DNA from: Candidatus Nanohalarchaeota archaeon
GTDB taxonomy: Archaea > Nanohalarchaeota > Nanosalinia > Nanosalinales > Nanosalinaceae
Reading direction: 5' to 3'
Length of the DNA: 64,000 nt
NCBI GenBank assembly: GCA_022729235.1
Contig: JALDAJ010000001.1
Location: 576,001 to 640,000, forward strand
Made by a program: the position numbers and the translations under genes. The notes below the pieces were generated by a model that was not told the DNA's origin, made no database searches, and saw nothing but the letters and a program-made list of their open reading frames with translations. The first letter of the stretch is position 1; the number at the start of each line of letters is the position of its first letter. Shown here piece by piece: positions 39,863 through 48,798 of this stretch.

Positions 39863-40531
39863 ATGTCTCAGGTCGTCGAGAAAGGTAACTTATGCTCCCA
39901 GCTTGAACCACGGGAGACTACTGTAGAGGAGTTGTTCGAGTCTATACAGGATGATCCTGTGGCGAGTGAGAGGGACTTTGTCGAGCTGTTTTACGACCGT
40001 AGTTATTCACCTCCCGAAGAAGGTATTCTTGATGAGAAGGGTTATGACTTTGATGATAATGAAAAAGTGGTATATATCTCTCCAGAACACGTTTCAGAAG
40101 GGGTAGGTAAGAGTCCAATGGCGATACTCACCTTCCTGAGAGATAGGGAGCCTGTGCCGTATACCCCGAAGTGGTTCGGTTACAGTCGTGTTGACACAGA
40201 AAAGGACGATGAGGAACTATCCGCAGACTATCACGCGGCATGTAGAGGAAAGAAATACGGTCCACTGGTACCTCTTGCAGGACTGTCGCTTGCGGGCGGA
40301 CCTTCCGAAAGCGCGGTCTTCTATGAACTCCTGAACACGGAACTGATCAGGAAGACCATGCTTGGAATAGGCGCACTGGTTGCCGTTGGAGGTATCATAG
40401 GGTGGCGGTATGAATCTGGGCGTTGCGATGCACTGGAGCCGGAGATGTACAAGAGGAGAGCCGAAGAACTTGTCAACCGCTTCGGAGACTACGGGATAGA
40501 TGAACGGGAACTTAGCCTGGACGAGTTCTAG
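39863..40531 (+). CDS. Hypothetical membrane-anchored protein
   Basis: 222 aa with a C-proximal TM segment. Confidence 0.6.
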   Translation: MSQVVEKGNLCSQLEPRETTVEELFESIQDDPVASERDFVELFYDRSYSPPEEGILDEKGYDFDDNEKVVYISPEHVSEGVGKSPMAILTFLRDREPVPYTPKWFGYSRVDTEKDDEELSADYHAACRGKKYGPLVPLAGLSLAGGPSESAVFYELLNTELIRKTMLGIGALVAVGGIIGWRYESGRCDALEPEMYKRRAEELVNRFGDYGIDERELSLDEF

Positions 40532-40566
40532 CCAAGTTTAAAAGCTTCATACTGCTTTCTCTTGAT

Positions 40567-41112
40567 ATGATAACAGGAAAACTTGCAGAGTCCCGCGTAA
40601 GAATCGTTGACGAGGAGGATGCGGAAGAAGTTCATGATGAGTACTACTACGGAAAGTTTCAGGACGAGGAGGAAACAGTTCTTGAGCTTTCGCTTGTTGA
40701 GGCGCTGCACCTGGTTGACCGTGACGTGATAGAGGTAGAAGATAGTGGAGAAACTCTCTCACGTGAGACTCTCTACGATCACTGCATCGAAGTTGACGAC
40801 GAGTTCGACCAGAAATACAAGGTGTACGACGATTTAAGGGATAGAGGCTACATCGTGAAGAGCGGTTTCAAGTTCGGTGCGCACTTCCGCGTCTACCCTG
40901 AGGGTGTGAACCCGTATAAGGAAGGACCGAAGAGTCAGAGAGAACACACACAGTGGGTGGTACACGCTGTTCCCGAGGACTACACGCTCAGTTTCCAGGA
41001 GATGTCCCGTGCAGTAAGGCTGGCGCACAACATCCGCGCCACCATGTTATGGGGTATCGTCGACTCGGAAGGCGGAGTCACGTACTACGAAGTCGAAAGA
41101 GCTACTCCTTAG
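40567..41112 (+). CDS. endA: tRNA-splicing endonuclease (single-unit size)
   Basis: LSLVEALHL, VYDDLRDRGY, KSGFKFGAHFRVY, VRLAH. Confidence 0.93.
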   Translation: MITGKLAESRVRIVDEEDAEEVHDEYYYGKFQDEEETVLELSLVEALHLVDRDVIEVEDSGETLSRETLYDHCIEVDDEFDQKYKVYDDLRDRGYIVKSGFKFGAHFRVYPEGVNPYKEGPKSQREHTQWVVHAVPEDYTLSFQEMSRAVRLAHNIRATMLWGIVDSEGGVTYYEVERATP

Positions 41113-41701
41113 AATTTTTGTCTTCTTTCTCAGGAAATCCAAGTGGTTGCTGGTCTAAGTCAGATACGTATTTCCTCTTACTACCTCTTTCATGAATACC
41201 CAATCCTTCAGGTTCTTTTAATCCTGCTCTTCCTATAGAGGGCGGGATTGCATGGACACGGAGTTCTCCGGGGAATAGCTCTCTTACTTCTTCATCGCCT
41301 ATCAGGGTTACTGTGCCTTTGTGTTCCTCAAATCCGAGCCAGCCTGTCCAGCTTTTGGGCTCTCCTCCGTATTGCTGGAAATTCATGTAGTAAACTGTTG
41401 TCTCGTTGGGGCTGTGTACTGCAGGTTTTAGATTCCAGTCATCGGGTAAAACTATATCTGCGGCGGAGGGATCAACAAGTAGATCCGCGCGTCTGCTGCA
41501 GTAATCCTTGTTTCCAAGCGAGGGCGACCTCGTAGTTGGAAGTGAATTACCGTAGAACTGGTCAAATGTTTCATAATCCTCTGGTACTGCGTAACCGTTA
41601 CCATCTCCTATGGACATGAATGTCCCATAATCGCCTGTTTGAGAATCATCATGAGTTGAGAGAAGTTCGTCCATTTCATCTGGACAGTCCATTGGATACA
41701 T
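41102..41701 (-). CDS. Hypothetical protein
   Basis: 199-aa orphan ORF. Confidence 0.55.
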   Translation of the reverse strand: MYPMDCPDEMDELLSTHDDSQTGDYGTFMSIGDGNGYAVPEDYETFDQFYGNSLPTTRSPSLGNKDYCSRRADLLVDPSAADIVLPDDWNLKPAVHSPNETTVYYMNFQQYGGEPKSWTGWLGFEEHKGTVTLIGDEEVRELFPGELRVHAIPPSIGRAGLKEPEGLGIHERGSKRKYVSDLDQQPLGFPEKEDKNSKE

Positions 41702-41728
41702 TGTTTGAAGTGAGTAATAAAAATGTTG

Positions 41729-42694
41729 TTAATATCCGAGCAAGTCCAGAACTCCCTGTCTGGGCTGATGTTTTTCTCTTAGTTTCTTTCCGTACCATAC
41801 GCCTAGTATGAGTCCTGTCAGGTGGGCTGAGCTCGCAAAATTCCCGATCACGGGCAGTGTTATGCCTACCATCTTTGTCAGCAGGTTGAATGTCTCTATT
41901 GATCCGAAAGCGTATAGTGCAGTCTTTATCTTCATAGGTATCACGAAGAAGAGCAGTACTTCGGCACGCGGGTACAGTACGGCGACGGCTGCGAACACAG
42001 CTACTACGGCGCCCGAAGCACCTACGATAGGTGGTAGTGTGACTGCGCCCCCGACTGCAGGTCCGTAGACCTGGAACAGTAAGTTCCGGAAAAGTACCAC
42101 TGCTATACTGGCTGCGAGCCCTGCTGCTACGTAGAACTTCAGTAAACGTTTCGCACCTATCATCCTTTCCAGCGGTGTGCCGAAGAAGTAGAAGGTTATC
42201 ATGTTCGCGAAGATGTGGAATCCTCCTCCGTGAACCAGCATAACTGTGGCGAGAGCCCACGGCGATTCGAGAAGAGTCTTTGTCAGTAGCTCCGAGGAAT
42301 AGCCCATCTCTGCCGCAGCCATGTTGGTCGCCTCCACTGCGCCAGTAGTAAGTGCGGGGGACAGGGTCAGGAAGTCTTTGAACGCGGGCGACGCCTCGTG
42401 AAGAAGGAATGCGGCTACTGTTACACCTATGATGGCTAACGTGGTACTGCTTGTTAAGGCGTCAATCGCGTCTCTGAATATGGACTGGTGTTTAACCTTT
42501 CGAGGTTTAAGCTCACCTCTCACCTCTTTCTCCTCAAACCATTTCTGCGTCTCCTCCCGCTCCTCTTCAACTCCTTCCTCAAGACTGTCACAGTCATGGT
42601 TCTCGGGTAATCTGTGTGAGGAGCAGAACTTCTTCCCGCAGTACTTGCAGGTGAATGCCATCGACTCGTCTCCGCATTTTGAGCACTCGGCCAT
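41729..42694 (-). CDS. Rhomboid protease with N-terminal AN1-type zinc finger
   Basis: CKYCGKKFCSSHRLPENHDC; HIFANM, GASG, AHLTG; start reassigned to MAECS at 42694. Confidence 0.93.
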   Translation of the reverse strand: MAECSKCGDESMAFTCKYCGKKFCSSHRLPENHDCDSLEEGVEEEREETQKWFEEKEVRGELKPRKVKHQSIFRDAIDALTSSTTLAIIGVTVAAFLLHEASPAFKDFLTLSPALTTGAVEATNMAAAEMGYSSELLTKTLLESPWALATVMLVHGGGFHIFANMITFYFFGTPLERMIGAKRLLKFYVAAGLAASIAVVLFRNLLFQVYGPAVGGAVTLPPIVGASGAVVAVFAAVAVLYPRAEVLLFFVIPMKIKTALYAFGSIETFNLLTKMVGITLPVIGNFASSAHLTGLILGVWYGKKLREKHQPRQGVLDLLGY

Positions 42695-42769
42695 GGAAGA
42701 ACCTGCGGTACCGCTCTTTATCAAATTGTTATCGGTACAGCCTAACTTTCTCTGCGTCCGATTCACCGC

Positions 42770-44512
42770 TCAAAATTCTTTGAGGTCGTTTCCGTCCATG
42801 AAACCTTTGAGGCTCTTCTCTAACTCTTCAACATTTACTCTTACCTGTTCAGTGGAGTCCCTGTCCCGGAGAGTCACGGTCCCGTCTTCCAGGGTCTGGT
42901 GGTCCACGGTCGCGCATATCGGCGTACCGATCTCGTCCTGCCGCCTGTAACGGCGACCGATAGCGCCTGAATCATCATACTTCACGGAGAAACCGCTTTC
43001 TCTTAGGCTCCTGGCGACTTTTCGTGCGCGCTCTCCCATCCCGTCCTTATCCATCAATGGGAATACAGCCACTTCTACAGGTGCGACTTCCGCGGGTAAG
43101 CGGAGAACGGTTCTCTCCTCTCCATCTACTTCGTCTTCCTCAAGGTTATGCGCTAGAACCGTGTAGAGTATTCGGTCGACACCGAACGACGGTTCTACAG
43201 TTTCAGGCATGATATGTTCTCCGGTCTCCTCAACTTCTTTTCGTGTAAATCCTGTTTTCTCCACGGGAACATTTACAGTCTCGCCATCGATTTCCAAGCT
43301 GATGCTTTCCTGCTCCTCGAACCTCTCCGGTTCTTCCTCCGCGATTCTCCCGAGTTCGTCCGCGATATCTGAGGCGCGGTCACCGTATTCAGGTCCAAGG
43401 ACGCTCATGTCTGGACTGACGGTTGCTTTCTCCACGGTCTTGGGCTCGTCGTATGGCTTGAAAACAGTGAAGTCTTCGCCCGAGTGCTCCTGGTGCTTCT
43501 TGAGGTCGTAGCATCCTCTGTACGCGAAACCTGTGATTTCAATCCAGTCACCTCCGACTTCAGATTCGGCGTCCCAGCAGTCGCTCGCGTAGTGCGACCT
43601 CTCGTCCTCCAGGTGCTGCCGGAACCTGAACCGGTCCATATCGATACCTATCCGCTCGTACCACTTCTTTGAGATACCGAGATAGTATGCTATCCAGTCG
43701 CTCGCGACCACGCCGTTTTCGACTGCTTCCGCCACGGTCATCTCGAGTACTTCTCCGCCGTCTTTATCCTGCTCGTTGATAGGGTAAAGGCGGAGCTCGA
43801 CGTCTTCCACGTCCTCCATTTCCGGTTCGTCTTTTTCTGGATCGATAAAGAACTCCAGCTCTGCCTGCGTGAACTCTCTGACGCGGACAATCGATTTCCG
43901 CGGTGATATCTCGTTCCTGTAAGCCTTTCCTATCTGTGTAACCCCGAACGGCAGCTGGTTGCGGGCGTATTCTTTCCACTGAGGGAACTCGACGAAGATT
44001 CCCTGAGCTGTTTCAGGTCGTAAGTAGCCGGGTGAGGAATCTCCTGGACCGATGTTTGTGCCGAACATCAGGTTGAAATCGTCGACTTCCACGTCTGCCA
44101 GTTCCTCGCCGCAGTTCGGACACTGGAGGCTGTTTTCTTCGATTATCTCCATTATCCTATCGGTGGAGAAGCTCTCCGCCTCCTCGATATCCGTGTTATC
44201 CTCGACCAGATGGTCTGCCCTGATGGATTCGCCGCACTCGGGGCATTCTATTATCATGTCGTCGAAGGTCTCAAGGTGCCCGGATGCCTCGAACACGTCT
44301 TCAGGCATGATTGTCGGTGCTTCTATCTCCATGTTGCCTTCCTGGTAGGTGAACCGGTCTCTCCATACATCCTCCAGGTTTCTCTTCAAGGCGGTACCGT
44401 GGGGTCCGAACGTGTAGAAACCGGCTGTACCTCCGTAAATCTCATTGGAGGGAATAAAAAATCCGCGTCTCTTCGCCAGTTCTTTCAGGCTCTGTGTGGT
44501 ATTCTGGGTCAC
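42770..44512 (-). CDS. glyS: Glycyl-tRNA synthetase (alpha2 type)
   Basis: RRGF, YLRPETAQG, RNEISPR, REFTQAE, EPSFGVDR, GRRYRRQDEIG; start GTG 44512 after SD GAGGTG. Confidence 0.97.
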   Translation of the reverse strand: MTQNTTQSLKELAKRRGFFIPSNEIYGGTAGFYTFGPHGTALKRNLEDVWRDRFTYQEGNMEIEAPTIMPEDVFEASGHLETFDDMIIECPECGESIRADHLVEDNTDIEEAESFSTDRIMEIIEENSLQCPNCGEELADVEVDDFNLMFGTNIGPGDSSPGYLRPETAQGIFVEFPQWKEYARNQLPFGVTQIGKAYRNEISPRKSIVRVREFTQAELEFFIDPEKDEPEMEDVEDVELRLYPINEQDKDGGEVLEMTVAEAVENGVVASDWIAYYLGISKKWYERIGIDMDRFRFRQHLEDERSHYASDCWDAESEVGGDWIEITGFAYRGCYDLKKHQEHSGEDFTVFKPYDEPKTVEKATVSPDMSVLGPEYGDRASDIADELGRIAEEEPERFEEQESISLEIDGETVNVPVEKTGFTRKEVEETGEHIMPETVEPSFGVDRILYTVLAHNLEEDEVDGEERTVLRLPAEVAPVEVAVFPLMDKDGMGERARKVARSLRESGFSVKYDDSGAIGRRYRRQDEIGTPICATVDHQTLEDGTVTLRDRDSTEQVRVNVEELEKSLKGFMDGNDLKEF

Positions 44513-44674
44513 TTTTGACACCTCTGGAAAAGTTGTCGATTAGAAGCCTTAAAAACCGACAGGACGAAAGAGCTAGAACTGGTTAAAGGGTTATTCGAAA
44601 CACGTGAAGTGTTTCTCAACGCAACTTCCTGGAGAAAGCTGCGAGAGTCCAAAGTAGCCACCCTTGATTGACAT
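44509..44674 (-). promoter_or_regulatory. glyS leader ORF MSIKGGYFG... with putative +1 frameshift cassette
   Basis: ATG TCA ATC AAG GGT GGC TAC TTT GGA; 0-frame stop 44591; +1 frame open to TGA overlapping glyS GTG. Confidence 0.75.
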
Positions 44675-44739
44675 AGATATCACAGTTGGTTCTGCTCGTG
44701 GAAAGCTTAAAAACCGTCCGAGTATTACGATGTAATATA

Positions 44740-45927
44740 ATGCCGGGTTCTGGAATGAAGAGTTTGGAAGATGCAGAGTTGGAAGGTAAAAGCGTGGTTC
44801 TCAGGACTGATCTAAACCTTCCTGTCGAGGACGGCGAGCCGCAGAAGACGGTCCGGTTTGAACGCTACATTGAAACAGTGAAGGAGCTCAGTGACGAAGG
44901 TGCGAGGACGATGGTAATCGCGCACCAGGGGAGACCGGCGAGGAAGGATTTCATGTCGCTGGAAAGACACGCAGAACTGATGTCGGAAGAGCTAGGGCAG
45001 GACGTTAACTTCGTACGGAGCTTCTTCGGACCGGAGCTTGGAGATGCAGTCGCCTCGATGGAGGACGGCGATGTAGTACTGCTTGAAAACATACGTTTCC
45101 TCTCCGAGGAGCTTCAAAACTTGCCCTCCGAGAGGCATTCTGATGATTATTTTATTGAGAATCTCTCCAGGTACTTCGATATTTTTGTAGACGATGCGTT
45201 CTCTGCATCACACCGCTCCCACGGATCGATAGTTGGATTCGTACCGCGCCTCGAATCCTATGCAGGACCTGTTATGCAGCGTGAACTGGAGAACTGTGGC
45301 AGGGTAAGAGATGAGCTTGACAATCCGTTGCTGGTTCTAGGAGGGGAGAAACCTTCCGATTTGATAGGTATGATGGAGCAGGTAATTGACCGGGCTGAGA
45401 AAGTACTGCTGGGCGGTATCCCTGGCGAACTTGCACTCAAGCTCCAGGGAAACGATCTCGGCGGGAAATCCGAGTGGATAGAGGAGCAGGGCTTTGACGG
45501 TAAGAGCAAGGAGCTTCAAAGAATCATCGAAGAACACGAGGAAAAGATAGTTCTGCCTGTAGATGTCAGAACGGACTCAGGTAACCACAAGATCGGTGAA
45601 GTCCCGGAAGGAGAGATGACATGGGATATCGGAGAGGAGACGCGGGAAAGGTTCGTGGAAGAGATAGGTGACGCGGAATCGATTGTCATGAAAGGTCCTA
45701 TGGGTGCGTTCGAGGATTATCCTGAGGGCACGCGAGCGGTAATCGATGCGATAGCAGAAAACGATGGCTTTACAGTACTCGGCGGAGGACACACATCTTC
45801 ACTTATACACCGATTCGGTCATGACCTCGACGAGTTCACACACGTCTCCATCGCGGGCGGAGCATTTGTCCGGTACATGAGCGGGGAAGAACTGCCCGCG
45901 GTCGAAGCGCTCAGGGAGTATTCTTAG
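44740..45927 (+). CDS. pgk: Phosphoglycerate kinase
   Basis: RTDLNLP, AHQGRP, LLENIRF, DAFSASHRSHGS, GGGHT, HVSIAGGA; start 44740 or 44755. Confidence 0.95.
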   Translation: MPGSGMKSLEDAELEGKSVVLRTDLNLPVEDGEPQKTVRFERYIETVKELSDEGARTMVIAHQGRPARKDFMSLERHAELMSEELGQDVNFVRSFFGPELGDAVASMEDGDVVLLENIRFLSEELQNLPSERHSDDYFIENLSRYFDIFVDDAFSASHRSHGSIVGFVPRLESYAGPVMQRELENCGRVRDELDNPLLVLGGEKPSDLIGMMEQVIDRAEKVLLGGIPGELALKLQGNDLGGKSEWIEEQGFDGKSKELQRIIEEHEEKIVLPVDVRTDSGNHKIGEVPEGEMTWDIGEETRERFVEEIGDAESIVMKGPMGAFEDYPEGTRAVIDAIAENDGFTVLGGGHTSSLIHRFGHDLDEFTHVSIAGGAFVRYMSGEELPAVEALREYS

Positions 45928-45985
45928 GGTCCGGATGTTGCTGACTGTCGAAATATACTTAACGCAGACTTCACAATAATGACGT

Positions 45986-46152
45986 ATGCAGCAAGGTGGC
46001 TGTTTTTGGACTTTTGCATCTGAATGATTTAGACAGCAGTATTTCTATTCCGGGTGGATGTTTTTGGGCCATCTAGTCTTCTAAAGGACAGGTTACGCTT
46101 TTCCCTGAACTATCTCAGAATCTGCTCAGTAAGGGAGCTTTCATGGCTTTAA
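45986..46152 (+). promoter_or_regulatory. Tandem Trp leader with two GGCFW cassettes chained by +1 frames
   Basis: MQQGGCFWTFASE*; its +1 frame reads ...SISIPGGCFWAI*. Confidence 0.7.
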
Positions 46153-46294
46153 TCAATTAAATCGGTTTTTATACACTTCAACATATTTTCTAAGTCTTTT
46201 AGATAGAAATAGTCATTATTCTATCTTTTTAGACTCTAAAAACCTCTAAAAGCTATTTAAAAGTTTTCTAACAACTGGAAAACACGTGATTAAA

Positions 46295-46369
46295 ATGACA
46301 AACGACACACAAGACGAAACACAGGCAGAAGCCCGACAGGGGGGATGTTTTTGGAGAACAAAATCTTGA
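46295..46369 (+). promoter_or_regulatory. Trp leader ORF MTNDTQDETQAEARQGGCFWRTKS*
   Basis: CAG GGG GGA TGT TTT TGG; TTTAAA box at about 46256. Confidence 0.7.
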
Positions 46370-46389
46370 AGAAGTTGTAAAGGGGGGCA

Positions 46390-46725
46390 TTGCTGGAGCA
46401 GGGTAGAGAAAGGGCTGTTTCGGTAATTGATAACTGTCTAACGATTGATGTAGACTCTTTCGATGAGGAAGTCTATTCAGAGGTTTTTGAGGTGCTGTTT
46501 TCTCCTGAAGAAGGATATCTAAGAGATGTTCCAGAGGACTTCCAATTCCGGCTCAGAAAAATATCGAGGTTCACTGTCGGCTGGGGTACGGAGTACTCGG
46601 AAACATATTCCAATGAACTAACTGGCCGTGATATCCGGGAGATGCAGAGGAAGGCGGTTGAAGAATCGTACACAGTTGGCTATTCCTCTGAAAAGTTCAT
46701 CGAACTGTACGAGGAGGTGATGTAG
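46390..46725 (+). CDS. Hypothetical protein upstream of trpS; true N-terminus uncertain
   Basis: Acidic ORF with TTG start; would continue the leader +1 frame if G6 at 46382-46387 were G5. Confidence 0.6.
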   Translation: MLEQGRERAVSVIDNCLTIDVDSFDEEVYSEVFEVLFSPEEGYLRDVPEDFQFRLRKISRFTVGWGTEYSETYSNELTGRDIREMQRKAVEESYTVGYSSEKFIELYEEVM

Positions 46726-46786
46726 TATCGCGGTAAGTGAGAAAGATTCCACCGGATATAAGAGCGCTAGGGAGGAATGATTAACC

Positions 46787-47890
46787 ATGCCAGAGATAGA
46801 TCCGTGGGGAGACGTTGAAGTCGGAGAGTACCGTGAAAAGATGGAGAAGTTTGGTATCGAGCCGATCGAAGAGATAGCAGATAAGCTCCCTGACCACCGA
46901 TACATAAGAAGAGGGATAATCTTCGGTCACCGCGGGATGGACGAGTACCTGGACGCGCTCGACGACGGCGAGGACGTGGCGATGATAACTGGTATAATGC
47001 CGTCCGGCATGTTCCACCTCGGGCACAAGATAGTGGTCGACCAGGTGCTGATGTACCAGGAGATGGGCGCAGACGTAACTCTCACTGCGGCGGACATCGA
47101 AGCGCACAACACCCGCGGTATCTCGCTGGAAGACGCGCGTGAGATGGTTATCGAGCAGTACCTGACCAATTACGTCGCTCTGGGTCTCGACCTGGAGAAC
47201 GTTGATTTCTACTTCCAGAGCCAGGCAGGCAACGACCACCTTGCCCGCTCCAAACTTTTCGCGAAGCACCTGACACGGAACGAGATGGACGCCACCTACG
47301 GAGAACCAAGTCCTGGTAAGATAGCGTCCGCATTAATGCAGTACGCCGACATACTGAGACCGCAGTTCCCGGAGAACGGCGGACCGAAACCAACTGTTGT
47401 TCCTGTTGGTATCGACCAGGACCCTCACATAAGACTGACCCGGGAGGTCGCGCGGAAGGCGTCTCAAGACTTCTACAAGCCCGCATCCATTTACAACAAG
47501 TTCATGCGCGGGCTTCAGGGTGGGAAGATGTCGAGCAGCGATCCGAAGAGCTACATCGCGCTTACAGATTCTGTTGAAGAGGAGAAACAGAAGATCGACG
47601 AGGCGAAGACTGGTGGTCGTGACACGCTGGAGGAGCACCGTGAGAAAGGTGCGGACGTTGAAGAGGACATGGTCTTCGAACTACTTGCTTTCCACCTTAT
47701 CGAGGACGACTCCGAGCTTGAACGTATCCGTGAAGAGTATGAGTCGGGCGAGATGCTGTCCGGAGAACTCAAGCAGATAGCGAAGGAGAAACTGGAGGAG
47801 TTCCTCCTCGCGCATAAAGAGAGGAGAGAAGACGCGCGTGAAGAAGTCGAACAGTTCGTCGAGGAGAACGTAGAGTCAGAACTTGTTTAA
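46787..47890 (+). CDS. trpS: Tryptophanyl-tRNA synthetase
   Basis: FHLGH, VPVGIDQDPH, KMSSS, AKTGGR, GEMLSGELK. Confidence 0.96.
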   Translation: MPEIDPWGDVEVGEYREKMEKFGIEPIEEIADKLPDHRYIRRGIIFGHRGMDEYLDALDDGEDVAMITGIMPSGMFHLGHKIVVDQVLMYQEMGADVTLTAADIEAHNTRGISLEDAREMVIEQYLTNYVALGLDLENVDFYFQSQAGNDHLARSKLFAKHLTRNEMDATYGEPSPGKIASALMQYADILRPQFPENGGPKPTVVPVGIDQDPHIRLTREVARKASQDFYKPASIYNKFMRGLQGGKMSSSDPKSYIALTDSVEEEKQKIDEAKTGGRDTLEEHREKGADVEEDMVFELLAFHLIEDDSELERIREEYESGEMLSGELKQIAKEKLEEFLLAHKERREDAREEVEQFVEENVESELV

Positions 47891-47914
47891 GTCCGGCTCC
47901 AGTATTTCTGACTT

Positions 47915-48610
47915 ATGTTGCCCGAGTTGATACTGCGTGAGGAGGAAGAGGAGAACCTTCCTCTGCTTGCAGTTCTAGGTCTCGCATCAGGTCTGGCAGG
48001 ATTTATTGCTGCAAGAGCTCTTTTTCCATCGCAGATAGATCTTCTTACGGTGATTTTTGCCTCGATACCGCTTGTATACCCTCTCGTGACGTATTTCCTG
48101 GAGCGTGAGAACGAGTCGCGACCCCATCTCCCGGAGATACAGGTCTACGGTTCGATTTTCCTTGGAATGGCGGCAGCATTCTTTATCCTGGGCTTGTATA
48201 ATCCTGAGTTATTCTCATTGCAGAATGCTATTATAGGTGCTGCAGGGCATGCAGTCAATCCAGTATCCTTCACCACGGTCTTATCCAATAACCTGATGGT
48301 GTTCCTGGGGATTCTGGCTGTCGCGTCGATTATAGGGTCGGCAGGAGCCTTTATACTGACCTGGAATGCCTCAGTCTTAGGAGTCTTCATGGCAGGGCTT
48401 GTACGTGACTCTATTCTCATGCCGTTCGCCTACATCCCCCACGCGTCTCTGGAGATGGCAGGGTTCATAGTCGCAGGAGTTGCAGGTACAATGATCTCTG
48501 CCGCAGTCTACAGAGAGCATTTCGATAAGGATACATGGCTCGACCTCTCAAAGCTGGTCGCCACGGGTGTTGGACTGATAGTCATCGCGGCGGTGCTGGA
48601 GACTGCGTAG
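47915..48610 (+). CDS. SpoIIM-family membrane protein
   Basis: NNLMVF, WNASVLG, PHASLEMAG, AAVLE. Confidence 0.85.
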   Translation: MLPELILREEEEENLPLLAVLGLASGLAGFIAARALFPSQIDLLTVIFASIPLVYPLVTYFLERENESRPHLPEIQVYGSIFLGMAAAFFILGLYNPELFSLQNAIIGAAGHAVNPVSFTTVLSNNLMVFLGILAVASIIGSAGAFILTWNASVLGVFMAGLVRDSILMPFAYIPHASLEMAGFIVAGVAGTMISAAVYREHFDKDTWLDLSKLVATGVGLIVIAAVLETA

Positions 48611-48641: not shown

Positions 48642-48798
48642 ATGTCACCATCCGAAGCACAGGGAACACTGAAGGGTGGACGTTTTTTCCGCCTGTGAAA
48701 GGCAGATTAACAGCTCTATTTCTGGATTGGTTTTTTCGAGGTCTCGGACAGGTATCGCTCAGATATTAAAGTTTAATTTGGGAGGTGTAAACCTGTGA
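48642..48798 (+). promoter_or_regulatory. pheS leader ORF MSPSEAQGTLKGGRFFRL* with putative +1 frameshift cassette
   Basis: AAG GGT GGA CGT TTT TTC; 0-frame stop 48698; +1 frame open to TGA 48796-48798 overlapping pheS GTG. Confidence 0.75.

Follow-up and report, generated by a model that had tools for sequence, protein, structure and literature searches.

Leader open reading frames with a codon-specific cassette upstream of glyS and other aminoacyl-tRNA synthetase genes in Nanohaloarchaea: candidates for +1 frameshift sensors of tRNA charging

The stretch of DNA analysed here (the window) comprises 64,000 nucleotides (nt) from a Candidatus Nanohalarchaeota archaeon, positions 576001-640000 of a single 1,027,595-bp contig, and the subject of this work is the leader of its glycyl-tRNA synthetase gene, glyS. 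The gene lies on the minus strand (42770..44512) and encodes a dimeric archaeal-type glycine--tRNA ligase, as indicated by a score of 660.1 bits against the NCBIfam equivalog model TIGR00389 (cut-off 243.3), which represents the dimeric archaeal/eukaryotic type. On the basis of N-terminal alignment with orthologues, the start was taken as GTG 44512, which is preceded at a distance of 6 nt by the Shine-Dalgarno (SD) sequence GAGGTG (44519..44524, minus strand); a second in-frame GTG is found at 44521. The choice of GTG 44512 and its SD is supported by the orthologues and by the paralogous leader of pheS (GGAGGTGTAAACCTGTGA). The glyS gene diverges from a phosphoglycerate-kinase-like gene (pgk, identified by eye), which starts at ATG 44740 on the plus strand.

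Upstream of glyS we found a leader open reading frame (ORF) of 27 codons (44591..44674, minus strand) running from ATG 44674 to TAA 44593-44591 and encoding MSIKGGYFGLSQLSPGSCVEKHFTCFE. It contains the cassette AAG GGT GGC TAC TTT GGA (44665-44648, minus strand), whose first three codons (44657..44665) form an SD-like element with a GGUGG able to pair with UCACC near the 3' end of 16S rRNA. There follow the spacer codon TAC (44654..44656), of the form Y-R-Y, which would occupy the ribosomal E site at the moment of a shift, then TTT (44651..44653), the proposed slippery codon of the P site, and finally GGA (44648..44650), the sensor codon of the A site, which is cognate to glyS. If G 44650 is skipped, the ribosome would enter a +1 frame (44509..44649, minus strand) that reads DSRSFLQ...QRCQK over 46 sense codons, from GAC 44649 to AAG 44514-44512, and ends at TGA 44511-44509, overlapping the in-frame glyS GTG 44512-44510. 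The leader ORF with its TAA, the 46-codon frame reached by a skip after TTT, its overlap with GTG 44512 and the SD ahead of that codon had all been put forward in the original prediction, made from the sequence of the window, and each was recovered at these positions. The GTGA stop-start overlap (44512-44509) together with GAGGTG (44524-44519) corresponds to the layout of a translationally coupled gene pair.

Between the A site and the glyS start there is no stop codon in the +1 frame, with four in the 0 frame and two in the -1 frame. Taken alone, the openness of this frame is weak evidence, since 10% of 20,000 shuffles of the 46 codons were also free of stops. This figure would suit an accidental origin, in which the cassette is a dispersed sequence or the relic of a repeat element with no role in decoding; for the glyS leader we consider chance untenable because of the comparative data across relatives and paralogues presented below.

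Two adjacent hairpins are predicted by folding within the +1 frame (44597..44646, minus strand; 44646-44616 and 44615-44597), the first of them beginning 2 nt past GGA. The pair has a folding energy of -21.5 kcal/mol with a z score of -3.5, and none of 200 shuffled sequences folded equally well. The second of these hairpins had previously been described as similar to a repetitive extragenic palindromic (REP) element; the hairpin itself is real, and its REP-like identity was rejected, as both hairpin sequences occur a single time in the 1.03-Mb genome. Most glyS orthologues carry a hairpin of unrelated sequence at the matching place.

Copies of the cassette directed to Phe and Trp, also part of the original prediction, were found elsewhere in the window (48642-48798, and 45986-46152 and 46295-46406, respectively). 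The Phe leader (48642..48798, plus strand) starts at ATG 48642, carries AAG GGT GGA CGT TTT TTC at 48672-48689 and has its 0-frame stop at TGA 48696, so that it reads MSPSEAQGTLKGGRF-F-RL*; its +1 frame spans 36 codons and ends in TGA 48796-48798, which overlaps the pheS GTG 48795 behind GGAGGTG. Three Trp cassettes lie on the plus strand between pgk and trpS. The first has its ATG at 45986 and GGT GGC TGT TTT TGG at 45995-46009. The second (46053-46067), GGT GGA TGT TTT TGG, has no ATG and would be read in phase after a +1 shift at the first; TAG 46074 ends the shifted frame of cassette 1 and is also the 0-frame stop of cassette 2, whose own +1 frame ends at TAA 46150. The third (46295..46406) starts at ATG 46295 and contains GGG GGA TGT TTT TGG at 46340-46354; its +1 stop, TAG 46404, sits 14 nt past TTG 46390, the start of a 111-amino-acid (aa) ORF (46390-46725) with no Pfam match, after which trpS starts at ATG 46787. 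The serial layout recurs at a paralogous locus at 831.47 kb of the genome, with GGT GAC TGT TTT TGG TAA in the +1 frame of the first cassette, and in one relative (G014). A start-less Trp cassette that only a +1 shift can reach is difficult to account for if the +1 frame is not translated. A 155-aa ORF at the second Trp locus is a candidate target that is not a synthetase.

We performed a genome-wide scan for the cassette and inspected the region 5' of every synthetase gene that could be located. The cassette AAG-GGT-GGN-YRY-TTT-XXX is a conserved module of Nanohaloarchaea, and in this genome its A-site codon is cognate to the adjoining gene for glyS, pheS, thrS, serS, valS, leuS, lysS and cysS, and to a gene at some distance for trpS and hisS; the NCBIfam identities of all ten synthetases were over the cut-offs. 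The +1 stop overlaps the synthetase start as NTGA in the Gly (TAC TTT GGA), Phe (CGT TTT TTC), Thr (TGC TTT ACC), Val (CGT TTT GTA) and Leu (CAT GTT CTA) leaders. It falls 5 nt past the serS ATG in the Ser leader (CGT TTT TCC), 12 nt short of the cysS ATG in the Cys leader (AGT GAT CGT TTT TGT) and 17 nt past the first lysS GTG in the Lys leader (GGT GAC TGC TTT AAG). Five copies of the Trp cassette (TGY TTT TGG) are present, including the three of the window 5' of the 111-aa ORF and trpS. An Ile cassette (CGC TTT ATC; L039, C1:457136-457304, plus strand) is followed by an in-frame Leu cassette (CGC GTT CTG) and does not adjoin ileS.

No cassette was found directly upstream of hisS. The His cassette (MQGGYF-H; TAC TTT CAC; L037, C1:884411-885627, plus strand) lies 1.2 kb upstream of that gene, separated from it by an 81-aa ORF of the AbrB/MazE fold, 29 nt inside which the +1 frame of the leader ends, and then by a 252-aa ORF without a Pfam match; in a relative (G019, L145), too, hisS has a His cassette about as far away. 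Inspection by eye of the 300-400 nt 5' of alaS, argS, gluS, ileS, metS, aspS, proS and tyrS of this genome revealed no cassette. A cassette-like leader, METHTRKPSSKGGRV-Y with GTT TAC, occurs at L040 (C1:968012-968214, minus strand), away from tyrS (462112, minus strand, no cassette). At metS (L041, C1 ~797374-797540, minus strand) we observed no ATG, GTG or TTG between an upstream in-frame TGA and the HIGH-like motif HLGN; a GTG overlaps this TGA (GTGA), one base upstream of the metS frame and 31 nt after a TTTAAA box, and a +1 shift would join the two. This oddity may reflect the use of a non-canonical start codon, an error in sequencing or a further frameshift.

We then compared the glyS leaders of 22 family-level loci with enough upstream sequence, leaving aside L009, L024 and L068, whose upstream sequence was too short. 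A cassette was present in 17 of them, 15 detected by pattern plus L013 and L019, which have GGT GAA for GGT GGA; it was absent from L011, L017, L020, L022 and L023. As the original prediction had anticipated for relatives, the +1 frame from TTT onwards was free of stops up to -15 to +10 nt of the glyS start in all 17 cassette-bearing loci, with an ATGA or GTGA overlap in 12 of them, despite cassette-to-start distances that vary from 72 to 162 nt. TTT was used in 15/15 glyS leaders though the search pattern allowed TTY, and the A-site codon was GGA in 14/14 of the relatives' set and in 15/15 named records, with GGG once (L019). In the case of thrS, 22 of 29 usable loci carried a cassette, always with an ACN sensor codon, and seven did not; the +1 stop was located at the ATG (NTGA) in 16/22 and within -4 to +10 nt in the remaining six. 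In five of these 22 thrS leaders the P-site codon is CCC or CCT rather than TTT, and two of the five have CGT GGT for GGT GGA.

Relatives were also surveyed starting from the cassette itself. The pattern AARGGTGGANNNTTT gave 147 matches in 41 family genomes, compared with 19 for its reversed control, and a pattern with the YRY spacer gave 165 matches against five of the reversed control in all 70 genomes of the phylum in the set, being present in 46/49 other family genomes and in five genomes of two further families. We fetched 116 matches (106 from the family, 10 from other families), 109 of which were cassette-like; six of 100 matches (L080, L099, L107, L131, L133 and L140) were dropped for lack of an in-frame ATG within 48 nt or for a spacer other than Y..Y, although the Trp match L080 and the Val match L133 could be genuine cassettes without a start. 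L185 was dropped as well. A synthetase gene was located within 2.6 kb downstream on the same strand in 80 of the 109, and it was cognate to the sensor codon in all 80 (69 close, 11 farther) and non-cognate in none, including 8/8 canonical TTT-TAY cassettes before tyrS. Taking all sets together, the cassettes cover 12 amino acids (C, F, G, H, I, K, L, S, T, V, W and Y). The spacer codon in 94 cassettes of relatives was CGT (50), CGC (23), TGT (15), TGC (4), CAT (1) or TTT (1). Only the 15-18 nt core is common to the cassettes, and their flanks differ. This last feature, the 80/80 agreement between codon and gene and the 165 matches against five of the control in 70 genomes all speak against a chance or repeat-element origin, as does the cassette count of 0/56 at haloarchaeal-titled glyS loci despite 63-68% identity of their GlyRS, and we give such an origin virtually no weight. 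The codon after TTT was thus cognate to the downstream synthetase wherever this could be checked, which supports the frameshift leader of the original prediction; the shift itself is something that we infer.

The 29 cassettes without a synthetase gene in reach (two of them at contig ends) comprised 10 Ile, 11 Trp, 4 Val and one each of Phe, Leu, Ser and Thr. Ile cassettes (L039; L112, L117, L136, L170, L096, L158 and L122) were never found before ileS. In four genomes an ORF of about 350 aa stands behind the Ile cassette, and the one that was checked (L117) scores as a threonine ammonia-lyase (TIGR01127, 394 bits; cut-off 379). Threonine ammonia-lyase performs the first step towards isoleucine, so that an Ile cassette before its gene fits the logic of a sensor of amino-acid supply. 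An in-frame second Leu cassette with GTT in the P site was detected in four other Ile leaders and in one Val leader; the Ile+Leu leaders precede ORFs of 376 aa (365-376 aa) and 633 aa with no Pfam match, their candidate targets. In two further Trp leaders, L175 (G035) and L188 (G011), the +1 frame is open for 1204 and 1045 nt, and these could be long ORFs entered via the shift.

The frame in which leader and synthetase are connected was evaluated in 57 close cassette-synthetase pairs of relatives, L151 having been dropped because of a run of N and no identifiable start. The first stop lay within 16 nt of the synthetase start in 55/57 pairs for the +1 frame, in 0/57 for the 0 frame, which always stops well upstream, and in 6/57 for the -1 frame. 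Within the +1 class, 21/57 were exact NTGA overlaps and 10 had the stop at +5 as in serS (ATGCTTGA). The two exceptions are Trp leaders (L115 and L162) whose +1 frame continues for about 340-355 nt through an ORF of about 110 codons, the equivalent of the 111-aa ORF of the window, and ends 29 nt before trpS. From sensor codon to start, the density of stop codons was lowest in the +1 frame (1.1%), compared with 8.7% in the 0 frame and 4.7% in the -1 frame, and the +1 value consists almost entirely of the terminal stops just ahead of the start codon. The intervening sequences are largely unalignable, and the +1 pattern recurs across paralogous leaders.

These frame statistics bear directly on an explanation without frameshifting, according to which a ribosome paused at the hungry GGA would alter RNA folding, RNA stability or transcription termination, as in attenuation or ermC-type control, the +1 frame being incidental or serving another purpose. 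A single cognate codon in a short leader ORF suits any stalling model, two stable hairpins stand behind GGA in the glyS leader, and transcription and translation are coupled in archaea. Stalling nevertheless leaves unexplained both the openness that is specific to the +1 frame (17/17 glyS, 22/22 thrS and 55/57 other leaders, compared with 6/57 for the -1 frame) and the start-less second Trp cassette in the +1 frame of the first. Moreover, runs of at least five T between the 0-frame stop and the start were not enriched (5/57 leaders, 6.3 expected), the SD is not sequestered and the hairpin is not general, as detailed below. We therefore regard stalling alone as unlikely.

The SD-like element of the cassette has the features of that of prfB, with GGUGGC, UAC and UUU in succession and complementarity to the 16S rRNA tail by sequence. 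The 3' end of the 16S rRNA reads ...GCGGCUGGAUCACCUCCA / ...GGAUCACCUCCA, which GGUGA(U) complements perfectly and GGUGG complements with a single G-U pair. The spacing from this element to the slippery codon was invariant in cassettes retrieved with patterns that fix that spacing. The variants GGTGAA, GGTGAC, AGTGAT and CGTGGT alter the encoded peptide (G-E, G-D, S-D and R-G) while preserving GUGR, which argues for an element acting at the RNA level rather than for a nascent-peptide signal. Codon choice also points to the RNA level: GGT accounts for 29% of Gly codons and TTT for 28% of Phe codons in this genome, and yet the cassette uses GGT for its first Gly, and TTT.

Most cassette variants (GGTGGA, GGTGAA, GGTGAC, AGTGAT and CGTGGT) include a GTG in the +1 frame, and an open reading frame (44509..44661) begins at that GTG in the glyS leader, so that two overlapping upstream ORFs could be envisaged, one initiating at this codon (G-GTG-GCT-ACT-TTG...) and coupled to glyS, and the other, from the ATG, modulating it. 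The +1 logic is, however, retained in cassettes with GGGGGA (window 46340) and GGCGGA (L069), which have no such GTG, and there is no SD at a working distance before this codon, which lies 6-12 nt from the predicted 5' end. Furthermore, the GTG would be hidden beneath a ribosome waiting at the hungry codon, and starvation would then lower synthetase output, which is the wrong direction, and the invariant TTT would find no explanation. We consider this arrangement quite improbable, somewhat more so than stalling.

Transcription and initiation signals were analysed in the window, in the complete genome and in the leaders of relatives. The window contains a TATA-like box, TTTTTAAG (44706..44713, minus strand), at position -38, 31 nt ahead of the leader ATG and thus practically where it had been predicted; read on the plus strand it is CTTAAAAA, 27-34 nt before the pgk ATG 44740. 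It is best read as an archaeal TATA box, farther out than the usual -29, and it may serve the leader, pgk or both. In 704 long ATG-started ORFs of this genome we detected a T-then-A-rich box at -31 to -24 behind an A-rich stretch, and genome-wide TATA-like hexamers peak at -29, a signature of leaderless mRNAs, with SD-like pentamers peaking at -12. Upstream of 93 distinct leader ATGs of relatives, the TATA peak lies at -31 to -28 with a minor cluster at -42 to -38, within which the box of the window falls. The leader ATG stands only two codons before GGTGGA in 40/94 cassettes, and this short distance together with the TATA spacing predicts that the leaders lie at the extreme 5' end of their transcripts. 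At the synthetase starts of the 57 leaders, SD-like pentamers occurred 37 times at -16 to -9, with peaks at -12 and -11, and TATA-like hexamers only eight times at -32 to -27, giving no indication of an internal leaderless promoter at -29.

Collectively, these results are best explained if Nanohaloarchaea possess a family of translational sensors, each specific for an amino acid, to which the glyS leader belongs, and we assign a probability of about 75% to a mechanism in which a +1 frameshift at the hungry cognate codon is followed by termination and reinitiation at the synthetase start. Judging from the position of the promoter, a leaderless or nearly leaderless transcript would begin at or just before ATG 44674, and the ribosome would read M-S-I-K-G-G-Y-F, reaching a state in which UUU, bound by tRNA-Phe, occupies the P site and GGA the A site. 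When charged Gly-tRNA is plentiful, GGA would be decoded and translation would terminate in frame at TAA 44593, 80 nt short of glyS. When it is scarce, the A site would be empty and the pairing of GGUGG with 16S rRNA, too close for the P-site position, would move the ribosome by +1, by analogy with prfB. The shifted ribosome would then read 46 codons that serve only as a track, end at the UGA over the glyS GUG, reinitiate there and raise GlyRS, the net outcome being a negative feedback from the supply of charged tRNA to synthetase output.

Several observations weigh against this mechanism or against parts of it. The direction of regulation is assumed, and the relatives compared are non-independent samples. 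Re-pairing of the P-site tRNA after the shift would be perfect (UUU, then U or C) in the Phe, Ser, Trp, Tyr, Cys and His cassettes; it would be near-cognate (UUG or UUA) in the Gly, Val, Thr, Ile and Lys cassettes, a caution already attached to the Gly leader in the original prediction, and poor for the P-site variants GUU (Leu) and CCY (some Thr). Plain P-site slippage can therefore be only part of the mechanism, and the shift may instead be driven by the pull of the SD-like element or by decoding out of frame; the GUU and CCY variants may have a parallel in Ty3, where frameshifting proceeds without re-pairing of the P-site tRNA. A strong 3' hairpin is confined to the Gly leaders (mean z of -0.33 over 93 cassettes, 12 of them with z < -2), and we rejected the hairpin as a general stimulator since most other amino-acid classes do not have one; that the Gly hairpins compensate for the weaker UUG re-pairing is speculation. 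The SD and start of glyS are not predicted to be buried. Sequestration of the SD and start by the leader fold was likewise not supported across 55 leaders, in which openness was slightly higher (0.47) than in upstream-shuffled controls (0.42) and lower in 14/55. Initiation at the SD may therefore occur independently of the leader, and any gain from coupling is hypothetical. A second copy of TTTTTAAG (44548..44555, minus strand) lies inside the +1 frame, 36-43 nt before GTG 44512; such a box is not a general feature of the leaders, and it could be an internal promoter, in which case transcripts free of the leader are possible, or could be meaningless. As a separate matter, transcriptional slippage was rejected as the source of the shift, given that the T run is just three in the Gly and Thr cassettes.

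In broader terms, we favour, with less confidence than the mechanism itself, the view that the cassette is a codon-programmable sensor of aminoacyl-tRNA supply that operates by a +1 shift at a single hungry sense codon, an archaeal counterpart of the T-box regulon and the first natural regulatory use of such shifting. It would be a 15-nt module retargeted by the change of one codon to any of 12 amino acids, with targets that include synthetases, threonine ammonia-lyase and genes without assigned function. The serial out-of-frame Trp cassettes would apparently act as an AND gate or give a squared response, and the in-frame Ile+Leu and Val+Leu combinations would apparently act as an OR gate.

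With regard to the surroundings of the leader, the window has a G+C content of about 49%, and its proteins look strongly acidic by eye. Just 5' of the pgk start (window ~44718-44740) we observed an inverted repeat of the type GTAATAC-N3-GTATTAC, which is also present in the relatives L011, L013, L017, L019 and L022 and is thus kept with or without a glyS leader; it may bind a regulator of pgk. The closest GlyRS relatives among named records are titled as Nanohaloarchaea or Candidatus Nanohalobium. GlyRS identity to Halobacteria (Haloarcula, Halovenus, Natronomonas) is 63-68%, about the same as to many other Nanohaloarchaea, whereas it is only 39-47% to other families within its own order, a comparison that suggests movement of the gene between host and symbiont lineages.

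Among named records, a Gly cassette was found in 15 of 74 glyS loci with enough upstream sequence, six further loci being too short. By title, 12 of these 15 are Nanohaloarchaea or Nanohalobium and two 'uncultured archaeon'; the last bears the label of a bacterial metagenome-assembled genome, which looks like a binning error. No Gly cassette was present in one Nanohaloarchaea-titled locus or in any of the 56 Halobacteria-titled glyS loci. The glyS cassette was not found in four other families of the same order (family f2 set aside), two of which do have cassettes of this logic for Cys, Thr and Ser.

To our knowledge, no amino-acid-specific control of aminoacyl-tRNA synthetase genes has been established in archaea, and none was found in the literature that we searched; nor did full-text searches return a published description of these leaders. 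By a search for terms, the words Nanohaloarchaea and DPANN are absent from a 2021 review of archaeal recoding (PMC8211752), and tRNA synthetases appear there only in connection with selenocysteine (Sec) and pyrrolysine (Pyl). Taken singly, regulatory +1 frameshifting and leader-peptide sensing are known, and the leaders would be a variant that joins them; as far as could be found, this joining, the use of a sense codon as sensor, the modularity of the regulon and its occurrence in archaea are undescribed. If our interpretation is correct, a DPANN lineage with genomes of about 1 Mb would possess a regulon run by a 15-nt codon-addressable frameshift switch, and the leaders would offer a natural system for studying how occupancy of the E, P and A sites and SD-like pairing set +1 shifting on archaeal ribosomes. 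It would also account for long 'non-coding' leaders and improve the annotation of gene starts in these genomes, provide a compact, retargetable sensor for the charging of a chosen tRNA and show how symbionts reliant on a host for their amino acids track this supply.

The closest resemblance is to the programmed frameshift of prfB. The prfB site is described as having an SD-like element 3 nt before the slippery codon, and variants with TTTTTGA, decoded by tRNA-Phe, occur naturally; the E-site tRNA is displaced when the element pairs with the anti-SD, and the P-site tRNA moves by +1 (PMC12421855). Compared with that account, the leaders share an SD-like GGUGR, a spacer of 3-4 nt, a P-site codon that is slippery in prfB (CUU, or UUU in some genomes) and putatively so here, a slow A-site codon and a position early in the ORF, and in both cases A-site occupancy would report on the regulated factor and create a negative feedback, as proposed here for the leaders (PMC12421855). 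They differ in that the A-site codon is a sense codon (GGA) read by aminoacyl-tRNA, whereas that of prfB is a stop codon read by its own product. The +1 frame of the leaders encodes no functional protein and ends at the start of a separate gene, with L115 and L162 as partial exceptions, and the device is modular, serving 12 amino acids, and archaeal, whereas prfB encodes bacterial release factor 2.

Promotion of a +1 shift by a slow A-site sense codon, owing to a scarce tRNA or to starvation, is known from hungry-codon frameshifting and from Ty1 (PMC5009743, a 2016 review of recoding), and the leaders resemble Ty1, Ty3 and antizyme in this respect. Of products made specifically under starvation by hungry-codon frameshifting, the 2016 review says that 'no examples are known'. 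Whereas Ty1, Ty3 and antizyme yield fusion proteins and the hungry-codon shifts of Gallant are starvation events without known cellular use, the leader would be a dedicated sensor coupled to a cistron.

The T-box riboswitch of Gram-positive bacteria is also a modular leader in which a single specifier codon matches the downstream synthetase or biosynthetic gene and which responds to tRNA charging, a response that we propose for the leaders as well, and AGGGUGGA superficially resembles the T-box motif. An Rfam scan of window 40000-48000 at E values up to 1 gave no matches, including to the T-box leader model (RF00230), and the T-box identity was dropped on this ground and on geometry. The leader codon is part of an ORF that begins with ATG 3-15 codons ahead of it, ribosomal decoding would take the place of direct pairing between tRNA and leader RNA, and no terminator/antiterminator pair is present. 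In attenuation (trpL, pheL, pheM-pheST, hisL, thrL and ilvL) a short leader ORF with one or more cognate codons likewise senses charged tRNA through ribosome speed; the leaders differ from it in having one cognate codon instead of a run, no enrichment of oligo-U and a conserved open +1 frame that ends at the start codon, and they do not show the features of an attenuator.

Finally, as in translationally coupled gene pairs, the stop of the +1 frame overlaps the downstream start behind an SD-like motif, exact NTGA overlaps being found in 12/17 glyS, 16/22 thrS and 21/57 other leaders. According to PMC6728339, coupling by termination and reinitiation at ATGA overlaps was strict in 13 of 14 tested pairs, nine of them from Haloferax volcanii. 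The leaders differ from such pairs in that their upstream frame is entered only by frameshifting, and the coupling of leader and synthetase gene would therefore be conditional.

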